From positions 1,120,001 through 1,184,000 of the forward strand of contig OY970368.1 of the NCBI GenBank assembly GCA_963718615.1: DNA of 64,000 nt. The letters run 5' to 3'. The notes beneath the pieces are model-generated. The model did not search any database. It saw only the letters and a program-made list of their open reading frames with translations, and was not told the origin of the DNA. Below, piece by piece: positions 42,813-54,032 of the stretch. Each line of letters opens with the position of its first letter. Positions within the stretch are counted from its first letter, which is position 1. A program made the position numbers and the translations under genes. This DNA is from an uncultured cyanobacterium (GTDB lineage Bacteria > Cyanobacteriota > Cyanobacteriia > PCC-9006 > JAAUQQ01).

Positions 42813-45800
42813 TCAATTCTCCTTTCCTCTTGGCTCTATCCCACACAATGCCCGATCTTCATTGCTGACATCCGGGTTGGTGCGGAGGTAGTCGCTGGCC
42901 CAGGTGCAAGCCAGCTCCAGGAGTCGATCCACATCCCAAGCTGCGAGCTTGACGGTGCCGTCATAACCGCCGGAAACAATCGTCTGGCCATCGGGACTGA
43001 AATTCACGCTAGAGACCCAGCCTTGATGGCCTTTGAGGGTAGCGCGCTCGCTGCCGTCGGTGTTCCAGAGCTTGACGGTGCCGTCAGAACCGCCGGAAAC
43101 AATCGTCTGGCCATCGGGACTGAAATTCACGCTAGAGACCCAGCCTTGATTGCCTTTGAGGGTAGCGCGCTCGCTGCCGTCGGTGTTCCAGAGCTTGACG
43201 GTGCCGTCATAACCGCCGGAAACAATCGTCTGGCCATCGGGACTGAAATTCACGCTCAAGACCCTGCCTTGATGGCCTTTGAGGGTAGCGCGCTCGCTGC
43301 CGTCGGTGTTCCAGAGCTTGACGGTGCCGTCATAACCGCCGGAAACAATCGTCTGGCCATCGGGACTGAAATTCACGCTCAAGACCAAGCCTTGATGGCC
43401 TTTGAGGGTAGTGCGCTCGCTGCCGTCGGTGTTCCAGAGCTTGACGGTGCCGTCAGAACCGCCGGAAACAATCGTCTGGCCATCGGGACTGAAATTCACG
43501 CTAGAGACCCAGCCTTGATGGCCTTTGAGGGTAGTGCGCTCGCTGCCGTCGGTGTTCCAGAGCTTGACGGTGCCGTCCTCACCGCCGGAAACAATCGTCT
43601 GGCCATCGGGACTGAAATTCACGCTAGAGACCCAGCCTTGATTGCCTTTGAGGGTAGCGCGCTCGCTGCCGTCGGTGTTCCAGAGCTTGACGGTGCCGTC
43701 CTCACCGCCGGAAACAATCGTCTGGCCATCGGGACTGAAATTCACGCTATAGACCCTGCCTTGATGGCCTTTGAGGGTAGTGCGCTCGCTGCCGTCGGTG
43801 TTCCAGAGCTTGACGGTGCCGTCATAACCGCCGGAAACAATCGTCTGGCCATCGGGACTGAAATTCACGCTCCTGACCCAGCCTTGATTGCCTTTGAGGG
43901 TAGCGCGCTCGCTGCCGTCGGTGTTCCAGAGCTTGACGGTGCCGTCCTCACCGCCGGAAACAATCGTCTGGCCATCGGGACTGAAATTCACGCTATAGAC
44001 CCTGCCTTGATGGCCTTTGAGGGTAGCGCGCTCGCTGCCGTCGGTGTTCCAGAGCTTGACGGTGCCGTCAGAACCGCCGGAAACAATCGTCTGGCCATCG
44101 GGACTGAAATTCACGCTCAAGACCAAGCCTTGATTGCCTTTGAAAATATTGCGTTCCCGAATGCCATAAACCTGAGTCAGCGCTGCTTGAGTCTGCAACT
44201 TTGCTTCCAGAGTCTCCTGCTTCACGTTCTGCCCGATTCCTTTCGGTTTTGATTCAATCTGCTGAAAGGTTCTTCCTGCCCGAATTCCCTGCACCAATCC
44301 CAAGAGTGGCCGAGTCTGTGCCTCTGCCTCCGCCTTCCTTGCATCCACCTGTACCCCCACAATCCGCAACGTCCATTCCGCCTCTGCAAGCGTGTCTTCT
44401 GCAACTCTTGCACTTCGTGCCGCTTTCCGTTGTTCCTGCTTCGCTAGTCTCAGTTGCTGCTGCGCCTGAGTAATTTGAGCGTTGGTCTGTTGCACTTTGA
44501 CTTCTGCCGCTTGTGCTTTCCCCTGTGCCTGCTGCGCCTGAGCTGCGGCTGCTTGCACAGTTTGCTCTGCCGCCGCCACCTGCTGCTCTACCGCCGCTAC
44601 CTGCTGATTCGCAGCGCTTTCCTGCTCCTGCGCTACCCGCACCGCCTGATTAAGCCGCTCCCGCTCCGCTTCTACCTCTTTCACCTGTTGCTGAGCCATC
44701 TGGGCCTGCTGCTGGGCTGCCTTTGCCTGCTTCTGAGCCTCAGCAGACTGCTGTTTTGCCGTCAGCTCCTTACGCTCCATCGCCTGCAAGTTCTCGTTGA
44801 GCGTCTCTCTTTGCTGCGTCAGGGTTTCCTTCTCCTGTTGGGCCGCATTCGTTTCTTTCCGAGCTGTTTGCAAATCCGCCCGAGCAAACAACGCACTCGG
44901 TATGGCCACCCCCGCCAACGCCAACGCCGCCACAGCCCCAACCACACTGCGCAAATTCTGCCGATTCGCCTGCTTTGTTGCTACCGCGACTTTTTCTTCT
45001 GCCTGCTGCGCCGCCACCGCCAACTGCCGCTCCGCCTCTAACCGCGTCTCCTCCAACTGTTGCTCCGCCGCCGCCCGCGCCGCCGTCAAAATCTGATTCG
45101 CCTCTTGCTCCGCCGCAACTTCCCGCTGCGCCTTGTCCAACGCATCCCGCTGTTCCTGCTCCAACGACGCCTGAATAAACTGATTCTCCACCTGCCGCAA
45201 CCTCGGCTGCATAAATGCCCAAGACCGCGCCTCCGCCAACGGTTTCCCCCGCAATAGCCGCGCCACATCCTGATCCTGCTGCCAAGCCGCCATCTGCTCC
45301 GCAAACGGACACAACCGCCCCAGCTCCCGCTGCACCCACGCCCCATCAAACACCGCTCGATAAATGCGGTTATACCCCCGCACCAGCCCCGCCCGCTTCA
45401 CCACCAGCCCCGTCAACCGCAGCGCCATCTCCTCCGGGGCATCCGTCGCCGCCACCTCGCCCCGCTCCAAAATGCTCTGATAAATCCCCAACATCTCCCG
45501 CCGCCGCTGCTCCGGCTGACCCAAAATCCGATCTCGAATCGTCCGCAGATGCGTCTGCTCATCATTCGCCTCCCAATGACCGATGATCCGGGATTGCACA
45601 ATTGTAGACACATCAATACCGGTCGGAGTATCGACATCAACCTGAGTGTTGGCCACTAATCCGCAGACCCGTTGGGTGAGGAAGGGCTGGCCCCCTGTCC
45701 AAGCCAAAATTTCCCGCAACACCTCCGGCCCCCGGTTCCCTAATCCCACCGCCAGCGGCCCCACCTCACCCTCCCCAAAGCCCTCCAGCTCAATCGCTCG

Positions 45801-46409
45801 GCCAATATTAAACGGCGTCCGCGTCTTATCTTGAATCAGCTCCCCCGGCGTCGCCACCCCAAACAACGCAAACGTCAGCCGCCCATACTCCGGCCTGTCC
45901 ACCCGCCCGTTATAGCAAGCCCGAATAAACGCAAAAAAATCATCAATCGGAAACGGCAAACTCAACACACTATCGATCTCATCCACAAAGATCGCCAGAC
46001 TCCCCGGCAACTCCGCCAGCAGCCAATCCATCAACATCCCCAATCGATCCACCGGGGGAAACTCCTTGCGCTCCCGCCACCAGCTCCGCAACTGCAGCCG
46101 CTCCGTCAGCCCCAACCCCGCCACAATCTGCCGCGCCAGCCCCGCATACCACTGCTCCTCCGTCGGGCTTTGGCTACCAATCGAGGTAATATCAACGGCG
46201 ACACAGGCCACCCCCTCCCCCTGAAGCCGCCCCATCGTCCGCACCCGCAGACTCGACTTGCCCATCTGCCGCGAATTCAGCACATAACAAAACACCCCCG
46301 CCCTCAGCCCTGCATACAGCTCAGCATCCGCCCGCCGCTCCACATAGGTCGGGCTGTCCCCCGGCAGCGTCCCCCCGACCTGATAGAAACTAGCCCCTGA
46401 AGTCGCCAT
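42813..46409 (-). CDS. AAA_35 (STAND) NTPase - TM - coiled coil - 10x WD40 protein
   Basis: [39 protein letters not shown]; hydrophobic [22 protein letters not shown]-rich coil; 10 WD40 repeats. Confidence 0.9.
42940..44150 (-). repeat. 123-bp near-identical tandem repeat x10 (WD40 coding)
   Basis: Unit LKG(H/N)[35 protein letters not shown](A/T)T. Confidence 0.95.
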
Positions 46410-46447
46410 AGGAATCACCCGTGCAAGCCAGACATCATACCCGCAAA

Positions 46448-47110
46448 TTAACCCGTTCGTAACCGATTTTCCAGCTCCTCTAGCGCCTGCAAACTCCCCA
46501 CAATCCAAGCGCGCTGAATCGCTGTCTCAACCCATTCAACCATCGGTAAATCTGGAAACTGCCGACTCACCGCTGAAGCCACATACTCCCCTGCTTCTAG
46601 CCAGTAAATCGTCAGACGCTCATTGGCATAAATCCAAACCTCAGGAACCTGAAGCGCCCTATAGGCTGCGATCGCCGTCAACGACGTCACATCCGTCTCA
46701 ATCGCCAAATCCGGCGGCGGATCCCCCGGCTCCAGACGGCGCTTCCCAATCATCCGCTCATAGTGTTGAATATAAAAACAAGCATCTGGCTCAATTCCCG
46801 CAATGCCCTGCTGCTTAAACGTCGTAGACCCTAGGGGTTGATATCGAATCCGTCGCGATCGCAGCACGGTTTTGACAATATCCGAAATCAAGTCCGTCGG
46901 CGCTGTACATTTCAAACAGCCATGGTCAGGACGTGGCACCGTAATCTCCAAAGTATCGTGACAGTAGGCGATTCGAGCCGAGCGGCGATCGCCCATCTCC
47001 GCCAAAATCGCTTCAAACTCCAGCCAATTCACATTTGGAATCGTCACTCGGCTACCGGGTTCGAGCCGGAGCTGACTAATGGGTTTGCTAATCGGTAAGA
47101 GCGCTGTCAT
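46448..47110 (-). CDS. Uma2 family endonuclease-like protein
   Basis: [26 protein letters not shown]. Confidence 0.9.
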
Positions 47111-47170
47111 AGGACAAAATTGAATGGGACAAATCGTACAAAAATCAAACGTATTACTCCATCCCCTGCT

Positions 47171-52953: not shown

Positions 52954-52981
52954 CACCCCGGATCCAAGCCCCAAACCCGAT

Positions 52982-53006
52982 GAGAGAGCCCTGCTCTCTC
53001 TTTTTT
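52982..53006 (+). terminator. Intrinsic terminator
   Basis: GAGAGAGC-CCT-GCTCTCTC-TTTTTT. Confidence 0.85.
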
Positions 53007-53081
53007 GTTGACTTCTTGTTTGTGGATTTCTTGCTGGAGTTTGGTTTGAGTTTTGCACAATTCCCGAGCCTTCTCAACTCC

Positions 53082-53252
53082 CAAAAAGTTTGGAGATCCC
53101 CCCAACTTCGTTCTCCCCCAAACCTAAATAAAAGTCTTATCTCATAAGCTTTTTAGCGACTTTACCCCCCTTGCTTGCTTTGTCCCACTCCCCCAAACGG
53201 ACTCTGGAATCGTCAACCCAGTCCCCCGATGGGGAACGGAATCAACAGCATG
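53082..53252 (+). promoter_or_regulatory. Conserved upstream module, copy 2
   Basis: Gapless similarity to 51904-52074. Confidence 0.75.
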
Positions 53253-54032
53253 TTCAACATACTCAATCGCTCACTCAAGTGCCGTACCTCTCTTTCCTGG
53301 GTCGATCGCTTACTCCTCTTGAGCCCTGGGATCACATTGATGAATACGGTGGCGACCTTTGCCGTTTTTGGCTACGGGATGCATTTACATCATGCAATCT
53401 CCGCCCCTACCTCGGATCATTCTGTCTCTGCAAACTCTCCAGTCTACCTCCCTGGGCTGGAATCCAATATTTTGCACAAGCCTTTTCCCCCGACGGCAGC
53501 ATCTCACCCAACCGTTCAGTTACCCAAGACCGACTTTTATCGATTAGTGACCCTGAGCGTTTTAGAAGCTCCCACCTCCATGGGCCGATTGGACGTAATT
53601 CAGTCCGTATTTAATCGCCTCAATGCGCCTTCAGTGGGTGCAGGGCAATTTGGATCTAGCATTACTGAGATTGTTTTCGAGGAAAAGCAATACGAGCCCT
53701 ATTTTCATTTTCAGGCCAGCGATATTGTGGATGAAGCGAGTGCGATCGAGGTGCTGCGATCGCGCGGTTATTCCAAGTCAGATGCCCTTTTTGCGCTCAA
53801 CGAAGTCATTGCCAATTTGCAACATCCCAAGCTGATGGCCGATGCTCGAAAACATGTGGGCGGTAGAACCCAATTCAAAGGTGTAAGCCAGTATCCCAGC
53901 CGTTGGCCCAACGAAGACCCCCTACGTGAAACAGGAGAAAACTTCTTTCACATTGACCCCAAGAGCCAAACCTATGAGCAGCTATCCCAATTGATGCTGC
54001 AAGGACCATTAGTGGTTCAGATGCTTGATTAA
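53250..54032 (+). CDS. Membrane-anchored SleB/Hydrolase_2-like cell wall hydrolase
   Basis: LEA..MGRLDVIQSVFNR...SITEIVF..KQYEP. Confidence 0.65.
   Translation: MFNILNRSLKCRTSLSWVDRLLLLSPGITLMNTVATFAVFGYGMHLHHAISAPTSDHSVSANSPVYLPGLESNILHKPFPPTAASHPTVQLPKTDFYRLVTLSVLEAPTSMGRLDVIQSVFNRLNAPSVGAGQFGSSITEIVFEEKQYEPYFHFQASDIVDEASAIEVLRSRGYSKSDALFALNEVIANLQHPKLMADARKHVGGRTQFKGVSQYPSRWPNEDPLRETGENFFHIDPKSQTYEQLSQLMLQGPLVVQMLD

Follow-up and report, generated by a model that had tools for sequence, protein, structure and literature searches.

Paired AAA_35 NTPase genes in an uncultured cyanobacterium: a probable NLR-like sensor/executor module interrupted by an IS21-family element

Gene content of the locus

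We have analysed a stretch of 64,000 nucleotides from an uncultured cyanobacterium (contig OY970368.1 of assembly GCA_963718615.1, positions 1,120,001 to 1,184,000), called here the window; all coordinates are positions within it unless another locus is named. Two paralogous genes of the minus strand, both coding for NTPases of the Pfam family AAA_35, are the main subject. The upstream gene (gene A, 51819 to 47171) carries the domains EAD4 and TIR in its N-terminal part, and the downstream gene (gene B, 42813..46508) ends in an array of WD40 repeats. With a probability of about 0.6, we read this locus as a copy, inactive here and lying beside unrelated cell-wall genes, of an NLR-like module that is widespread in cyanobacteria and in which two genes divide the roles of sensor and executor.

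Gene A is a single gene interrupted by an insertion sequence (IS) of the IS21 family. When the IS and one copy of the flanking repeat are excised, ...CFISYRSQDP joins DQVLAQTF... in frame and the two pieces (165 and 504 amino acids, aa) add up to a protein of 669 aa. The 5' piece (51324..51819, minus strand) codes for EAD4, a linker and the first TIR strand (...CFISYRSQDP), and a genome-wide search placed an EAD4 match at the same position. The 3' piece (47171..48690, minus strand) codes for the remaining TIR domain and the AAA_35 NTPase. On the same strand, the EAD4 domain (Pfam PF19959; aa 7-124, 51448-51801) covers profile positions 1-123 of 123 with 94.8 bits (cut-off 27, E 7e-27). The part of the TIR domain that follows the IS (48365-48688) matches TIR_2 (PF13676) with 56.8 bits against a cut-off of 28 (E 4e-15), and the AAA_35 domain (PF14516; 47192-48181) reaches 487.5 bits (E 2e-146), with PRQMGKTS as Walker A and LCLDEVD as Walker B. 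The TIR domain contains the motif SEMVTEEV (SEMVxEEV), with a glutamate that is invariant in all six aligned TIR domains of this protein type and that we take to be the catalytic one. An earlier note on this DNA, made from its letters alone, had proposed the restored reading frame, the TIR domain that keeps this glutamate and the AAA_35 domain behind it, and all three are confirmed.

The IS itself (48691..51323, minus strand, 2633 bp) codes for IstA (49364-51154, minus strand; NCBIfam transpos_IS21, E 1.2e-63) and IstB (48796-49710, minus strand; IS21_help_AAA, E 1.5e-80), both of which exceed the curated cut-offs of NCBIfam. On either side lies a copy of the target-site duplication ACCCGG, read from the minus strand of the sequence, the upstream one (51324..51329) in agreement with the IS end and the downstream one at 48685..48690. 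The istA and istB pair, the 6-bp direct repeat and the presence of several copies all place the element in the IS21 family. There are nine copies in the genome including that of the window (others are found, for example, at C1:318356-320988, 3232682-3235315 and 5341412-5344049), all of them 100% identical, and the eight further copies served to set the ends of the element. Such identity indicates that the element has moved in this genome recently and probably still does. The TIR domain of gene A is not contiguous, as the element parts its first strand (FISYRSQDP) from the remainder, and the module is inactivated in this strain by this insertion. An intact allele was sought in the contigs of three metagenome runs over 42000-56000; these gave short pieces only, none of which spans the junction free of the IS.

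Gene B (42813..46508, minus strand) is a frame of 1231 codons with a likely start at the ATG at 46409. It begins with a divergent AAA_35 domain (45522-46373, minus strand; 80.8 bits against a cut-off of 27), so that both A and B pass the Pfam cut-off for this family. A single hydrophobic segment of transmembrane (TM) type follows (aa 522-540, 44889..44945, minus strand; Kyte-Doolittle score 2.22), and a stretch rich in Q, A and E, read from the sequence, lies between the AAA_35 domain and the WD40 array. This array (42915..44147, minus strand) consists of ten units of 41 aa and matches Pfam WD40 in ten stretches. The nine complete repeats differ in nucleotides at five codons only (unit positions 5, 8, 10, 26 and 41) and every difference is nonsynonymous, indicating that the repeats are under diversifying change. 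A second AAA_35 protein with a TM segment and ten hypervariable WD40 repeats, located after a gene of the Uma2 family, had also been described in the earlier note and these parts were found; what the note had called a long coiled coil corresponds to the Q/A/E-rich stretch. A membrane-spanning sensor is plausible, because two paralogues in this genome have CHASE2 and all three WD40-type paralogues have one hydrophobic segment. Antisense to the WD40 array there is a frame of 564 codons (42558-44252, plus strand) with sub-threshold Pfam matches only; it most likely results from the composition of the repeats and is no gene.

The AAA_35 pair in this and other cyanobacteria

Twelve AAA_35 matches were found in this genome, six strong, five weak and one marginal, and five of the strong ones are each followed by a weak one, giving five A/B pairs. 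Besides the pair of the window (EAD4-TIR-AAA_35 followed by AAA_35-TM-WD40), CHAT-TIR-AAA_35 is followed by AAA_35-WD40 at 0.470 Mb and CHAT-AAA_35 by AAA_35-WD40 at 1.631 Mb, and at both 2.756 and 4.179 Mb an AAA_35 protein with an N-terminus without family assignment precedes AAA_35-CHASE2. According to Pfam, the division of labour between A and B is strict in the pairs of this genome. The sixth strong match is a solo protein with a C-terminal GGDEF domain and no adjoining sensor-type partner (L019:5303-7225, corresponding to G000:C1:4328303-4330225), which suggests that this NTPase family also feeds signalling by cyclic di-GMP.

The same layout was found at six loci of five other cyanobacterial genomes. 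There the outputs of the A proteins are CHAT-TIR, CHAT, cyclase-TIR (twice), TIR and a protein kinase, and the sensors, in the two B proteins scanned, are WD40 (one Pfam match) or FHA. In a wider sample, 99 of 151 cyanobacterial genomes have the sensor-type NTPase (E <= 1e-30), often in several copies, the maximum being 12 matches in one genome. Of 29 sensor-type loci taken from other cyanobacteria, 21 have a gene of type A no more than 1.5 kb upstream of the sensor gene, and in 20 of these 21 it runs on the strand of the sensor gene. This recurrence of effector-AAA_35 followed by AAA_35-sensor, five times in this genome and at 21/29 loci elsewhere, supports the earlier proposal that the two NTPases are partners. 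One A-type gene (L096:2757-4257, in G033:C57) is divergent to its sensor, and its N-terminus reads by eye as a helix-turn-helix region followed by a TIR-like region.

Genome G006 has the closest orthologous pair, with an identity of 76% for A and 87% for B. There CHAT takes the place that EAD4 has in gene A of the window, an alcohol dehydrogenase gene lies upstream, and the two genes of the pair share 4 nt of overlap, as is also the case in one paralogue. A and B of the window share about 25% identity with each other. Furthermore, over 20 pairs the distances among the A domains are correlated with those among the B domains (Mantel r 0.77, a value that none of 5000 permutations reached, kinship being uncontrolled).

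By the criterion used here, a STAND NTPase combines a P-loop domain that has Walker A and Walker B with a helical GxP module and a winged-helix domain behind it. All 11 A and all 10 B proteins have Walker A, and the Walker B pattern occurs in 10/10 B proteins. The AAA_35 alignments have a conserved GGHPYL in A and GGQPFL in B, which resemble the GxP motif of STAND NTPases. No system model of PADLOC-DB 2.0 covers the AAA_35 pair, the matches being to TIR, CHAT, the WD40 region, the P-loop (weakly) and Uma2, and our literature search found no published description of the pair.

The Uma2 gene, of the PD-(D/E)XK type, lies between A and B (46448..47110, minus strand; Pfam Uma2, E 4.5e-14) and matches the PADLOC phage-defence candidate PDC-S17 (E 1e-33). 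We considered it as a third component of the module and rejected it: it is absent from the closest orthologue, and tblastn gave no match in 29 other loci. It is a later insertion and no conserved part of the module. One frame between the two genes at L104 appears Uma2-like, by eye only.

Structure and distribution of the EAD4 domain

The study of Kaur et al. (PMC7159879) treats EAD4 as a small non-enzymatic "effector-associated domain" (EAD), thought to recruit partners by homotypic contacts, and notes its mixed alpha+beta character. Our model from an alignment of 25 sequences (confidence score pLDDT 91.6) has four helices and four strands in the order H1-b1-b2-H2-H3-b3-b4-H4. The N-terminal domain of about 130 aa that the earlier note had seen in gene A is real, and is EAD4, but it is not all-helical as had been supposed. 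A wide VIA-align search with the model returned 50 top chains that are nearly all winged-helix proteins by entry title (among them ORC/Cdc6, CRP/FNR, NtcA and ETS), with Z of 5.4-7.6, which being below 8 is in the middling range by the tool's own scale. Foldseek gave nothing at E <= 0.001, and its weak matches are rich in winged-helix proteins (best E 0.035, TM-score 0.36-0.48). These comparisons of a predicted model weakly suggest a winged-helix-like fold, and to that extent agree with the winged helix-turn-helix predicted in the earlier note. The basic charge expected of such a domain is not seen: the net charge has a median of -1 and is positive in 5 of 25 sequences, and the part comprising H2, H3 and the wing has a median of 0.

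Of 201 cyanobacterial genomes sampled, 38 have EAD4, and 32 of these 38 have one match each. We have scanned 21 EAD4 proteins: 16 combine NACHT or NB-ARC with repeats and have no other effector family, three are WD40-rich (among the matches listed) and two have EAD4 only. TIR or AAA_35 was found in none of the 21 (for the three WD40-rich ones, among the matches listed). Three more EAD4 proteins, of genome G201, are EAD4-NB-ARC or EAD4-AAA_16. The second EAD4 of the present genome belongs to an EAD4-NACHT-HEAT protein at about 5.203 Mb (L020:5242-8181, corresponding to G000:C1:5203242-5206181), 4 Mb away from the window. The EAD4 of gene A could be an adaptor that docks on this protein or could be an output itself. 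The distribution sits oddly with a purely homotypic-adaptor role.

At the 20 loci L066-L085 and at L020, the N-terminus of the NACHT or NB-ARC repeat proteins usually has EAD4 as its sole recognisable domain, and one match per genome is the usual number.

Divergent cell-wall genes and their shared leader

Upstream of gene A and divergent from it there are two plus-strand genes, here P4 (52072..52953) and P5 (53250..54032), each coding for a protein with one N-terminal hydrophobic segment that would anchor it in the membrane. By its model, P4 is a YkuD-fold (L,D-transpeptidase-like) protein. The model has a mean pLDDT of 68, the block means within the domain being mostly 70-97 with dips to about 45-55. 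The top 20 VIA-align matches are all YkuD-fold enzymes, L,D-transpeptidases and carboxypeptidases, with Z from 8.0 to 4.9 (the best one with rmsd 3.6 over 163 aligned residues), and the next chain falls to Z 2.3. In 25 sequences His230, Ser244, Gly246 and Cys247 (the last three in Ser-Ala-Gly-Cys247) are invariant. At the sequence level P4 matched no Pfam family at E <= 0.01; its catalytic domain had no match in the PDB, where only the PG-binding part of relatives was matched, and Foldseek with the P4 model gave none at E <= 0.001. We collected 1353 homologues, mostly cyanobacterial "peptidoglycan-binding domain" proteins with PG_binding_1 in place of the membrane anchor. The P4 domain has a patchy distribution: of 121 genomes sampled, 5 have it, and none of 6 genomes of the same family does. 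In relatives, PG_binding_1, a phage-lysozyme domain or another N-terminal region is fused to the catalytic domain (52282-52953).

P5 contains a SleB-like cell-wall hydrolase domain related to Hydrolase_2 (PF07486), to which P5 itself scores 17 bits, below the cut-off of 27. Ten of 14 scanned homologues match Hydrolase_2 in the shared region (E <= 1e-3) and two exceed the cut-off, so by transitive evidence P5 is a divergent relative of this family; a sequence search of the PDB returned nothing useful. Only two homologues are close, and an exhaustive search extended the set to 214 relatives, many as domains in proteins of 2000-5700 aa. Five of the 14 scanned also have Peptidase_M23 and one a phage minor-tail domain, which suggests that the C-terminal domain of P5 (53510-54020) travels with phage tails or other lytic proteins of mobile elements. 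The YkuD-like and SleB-like motifs and the membrane anchors ascribed to these genes in the earlier note agree with these results. Of its view that both are separately terminated, the part on P4 is supported, as a terminator scan listed a terminator-like hairpin with a T run after it (52982..53000, plus strand); after P5 no clear plus-strand terminator was listed. The idea that P4 and P5 are paralogues was rejected, since only the N-terminal anchor is weakly similar (E 0.004) and the catalytic domains are unrelated.

The two genes do share a putative regulatory module, as had been proposed. The leaders of P4 (51896..52071, plus strand) and P5 (53074..53249, plus strand) are paralogous and 77% identical over about 200 nt. 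The P4 leader is made up of AAAAAGTTTGGGG, TCCCCCAAAC and TTGCTTTG-CCACTCCCCCAAA blocks, a small GC hairpin and a ribosome-binding site, and three TTTGGGG/CCCCAAA words are contained in the shared module. A covariance model of the leader core (R1) scores 94.9 bits for P4 and 90.8 bits for P5, and over 151 genomes it found the two window copies only at E <= 0.01. Within this genome the full module is confined to P4 and P5; two further R1 hits at E 0.4-0.95 were taken as chance. A third copy of the leader (L125:806-992) precedes a P5 homologue in the genome of another cyanobacterium. Among the three sequences, a comparison with no statistical power, a 5' hairpin GTTTGGGG/CCCCAAAC is conserved with one compensatory change, the block TTGCTTTG-N2-CCACT-N-CCCCAAA is invariant and complementary to the ribosome-binding region, and the small GC hairpin sits just 5' of the ribosome-binding site. 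This complementarity means that an RNA-level switch explains the leader at least as well as a protein operator. Rfam gave no match on 40000-58000 at E <= 1, and the leaders are therefore not a known riboswitch such as ydaO. A sigma-70 promoter scan of 51700-54400 gave 0 sites against 2.1 expected by chance; an ECF-sigma-type promoter was discarded, as the spacing of about 12-13 nt is, by eye, too short. No similar arrangement of motifs was seen, by eye and with regular expressions, upstream of P4-family genes at eight loci in other cyanobacteria. The shared leader and N-terminal anchor would come from a duplication of the 5' module of these genes, and the leader is a candidate for a new cis-regulatory element of wall-hydrolase genes.

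We have looked for a P4 or P5 homologue, or a cell-wall family, around the relatives of the module and found none at the four other paired loci of this genome, none at the six paired loci of five other genomes, none at 29 sensor-type loci (1.5-kb flanks) and none at 20 EAD4 loci of other genomes (6-10 kb on each side). The survey of gene neighbourhoods that the earlier note had suggested as a check thus came out negative at the loci searched, and the leader recurs on a contig of 7.4 kb without a STAND gene, which otherwise has a BTRD1-repeat gene and transposases and stops 0.9 kb upstream of the leader. That genome has four EAD4 genes, all on other contigs, so that this comparison by itself does not decide the matter. 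In addition, conserved neighbours of the locus, Ppx and nucleoside deoxyribosyltransferase genes, occur in two relatives unaccompanied by the pair or by the wall genes. A functional link between the pair and P4/P5 is not supported by any of the comparative tests available, and P4 and P5 are probably separately regulated accessory neighbours that lie outside the module.

Functional interpretation

The reading that we favour, a split sensor/executor module, would work as follows. Gene B would code for the sensor, with an N-terminal AAA_35 NTPase in which Walker A and B are intact and a C-terminal ligand-binding part made of the membrane-type segment, the Q/A/E-rich stalk and the ten WD40 repeats. 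The product of gene A would be the executor, with an NTPase of the same kind, no sensor, and EAD4 and TIR as N-terminal outputs. Binding of a ligand by B may drive a nucleotide-dependent co-assembly of A and B, and this would gather the TIR domains, leading to NAD+ cleavage or to the production of a signal. The EAD4 domains would cluster at the same time and could dock on the only other EAD4 protein of the genome, EAD4-NACHT-HEAT, or act as an output themselves.

Several results weigh against this reading. Among 11 A proteins, only two, including that of the window, have the Walker B pattern where it is expected. With regard to STAND membership, a PDB sequence search with the AAA_35 domains of A and B found no solved relative, and when four AAA_35 proteins of the genome were compared with the PADLOC-DB 2.0 models, the AAA_35 domains gave only weak P-loop matches. 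The two EAD4 copies of the genome are 32% identical, compared with 43% for the best match in another genome, and a co-evolved homotypic pair is therefore not favoured. Eight of the 29 sensor loci have no A-type gene inside the 1.5-kb flank, and nearest neighbours in the distance tables of A and B agree for only 4 of 20 pairs. These last two results, together with the low identity between A and B and the Uma2 gene that can intervene, would also fit A and B being independent tandem paralogues, adjacent merely by their history of duplication. We find that quite improbable, as order and strand are kept in 20/21 pairs, the 4-nt overlaps suggest coupled translation and the parts are strictly complementary: at the loci examined with Pfam, A proteins have no repeat or sensor family and the scanned B proteins no effector family, and neither alone would therefore be a complete receptor. 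A stronger contender, though still an unlikely one, is that the AAA_35 pair works as a general signalling switch that responds to the environment or to development and has no immune role, with TIR serving signalling and not suicide. The A outputs elsewhere include adenylate/guanylate cyclase and protein kinase, this genome has the solo AAA_35-GGDEF protein, and fusions of sigma-70 to AAA_35 are mentioned for cyanobacteria in PMC11119718; with outputs as varied as these the family may be a general signalling platform. CHASE2 and FHA among the sensors are classic signalling modules, and the AAA_35 parts are without a PADLOC match of their own. However, no other outputs are as frequent as CHAT and TIR, which were seen on 7 of 11 A-type proteins, multiple diversified paralogues exist per genome, and loss mediated by an IS would be typical of costly, dispensable defence genes. 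The variation of the WD40 repeats, purely nonsynonymous and in five codons, also speaks for immunity, receptors for the recognition of non-self, among them the fungal HET-E/NWD proteins, being known for such a pattern.

The remaining alternative assigns to EAD4 the role that the earlier note had proposed for the N-terminal domain, a winged-helix DNA-binding output: the membrane sensor B would activate A, and EAD4 would turn on P4 and P5 through their shared upstream module. In its general form, EAD4-NACHT/NB-ARC and EAD4-TIR-AAA_35 proteins would all be ligand-gated DNA-binding regulators and, at this locus, an envelope-spanning WD40 sensor would act through the CCCCAAA words on P4 and P5, coupling non-self recognition to peptidoglycan remodelling or lysis. 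The confident model with its order of helices and strands fits, as do the nearly uniform winged-helix matches in VIA-align, with which the weak ones of Foldseek agree, and the three TTTGGGG/CCCCAAA words of the leader. EAD4 is moreover single in 32/38 genomes and in 16/21 proteins sits on NACHT or NB-ARC without another effector, so that it could be the output itself, and the one other leader-bearing genome has four EAD4 genes. Against this, VIA-align matches that stay below Z 8, with Foldseek at E above 0.03, could come from nothing more than a common arrangement, and the domain is near neutral. None of the 20 EAD4 loci has a P4 or P5 homologue within 6-10 kb and there is none near the 4, 6 and 29 paired or sensor loci. 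Gene A's closest orthologue lacks EAD4, having CHAT instead, with the alcohol dehydrogenase gene upstream. In the leader-bearing genome the EAD4 genes are on contigs other than that of the leader, and leader blocks complementary to the ribosome-binding region fit an RNA-level element equally well. We consider the switching of the wall genes by EAD4 highly improbable, and the wider scheme of ligand-gated regulators, with its coupling to the cell wall, just as improbable.

If A and B do co-assemble, the split sensor/executor module would be a widespread cyanobacterial counterpart of the plant sensor/helper NLR pairs and of NAIP-NLRC4, in an NTPase family, AAA_35, for which our searches found no solved structure or tested function. 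Its swapped outputs (TIR, CHAT, cyclase, kinase, EAD4) and inputs (WD40, CHASE2, FHA) would offer a natural system in which to see how the roles of receptor and executor are split. The variants with CHASE2 or TM-WD40 would be among the rare candidates for an NLR-like sensor that works across a membrane.

Comparison with known systems

The neighbours P4 and P5 can be compared with known wall enzymes. P4 shares, in its model, the fold of YkuD L,D-transpeptidases and carboxypeptidases, together with the invariant His and Ser-x-Gly-Cys, but is below the Pfam cut-off, and while its relatives usually have PG_binding_1, P4 has a membrane anchor. P5 resembles SleB-type Hydrolase_2 enzymes in that its relatives match this family in the shared region, but it is below the cut-off itself, and unlike P5 most domains of its type are found inside giant proteins with Peptidase_M23 or phage tail domains.

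The A/B module shares its parts with the NLR-like/STAND conflict systems of multicellular bacteria, as these are outlined in PMC7159879 (Kaur, Burroughs, Iyer and Aravind, eLife 2020) and PMC8195603 (eLife 2021): effectors of TIR or CHAT type, EAD adaptors, P-loop NTPase switches and WD40, TPR or HEAT repeats. Both these systems and the module are enriched in cyanobacteria, where a genome has many diversified copies. In the module, however, effector and sensor are on two tandem paralogous AAA_35 NTPases, and not on one STAND protein or in a MoxR-vWA ternary system. The main text of Kaur et al. (PMC7159879) contains none of the terms AAA_35, CHASE2 and "paired", and its source-data tables may list such architectures.

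The WD40 array is reminiscent of the fungal HET-E/NWD STAND proteins, with near-identical tandem units that vary at few positions, always with a change of amino acid. The unit here has 41 aa, the array comes after a membrane-type segment and the NTPase is AAA_35. As for the pairing, in the plant pairs RRS1/RPS4 and RGA5/RGA4 and in mammalian NAIP-NLRC4 an NTPase that senses the ligand works with one of the same family that bears the effector, and the plant genes lie side by side. The likeness of the A/B module to these sensor/helper NLRs would be a functional analogy, in the division of labour between a sensing and an effector NTPase; the NTPase here is AAA_35 and not NB-ARC or NACHT, and the two genes are in tandem and co-directional, whereas those of the plant pairs are head-to-head.

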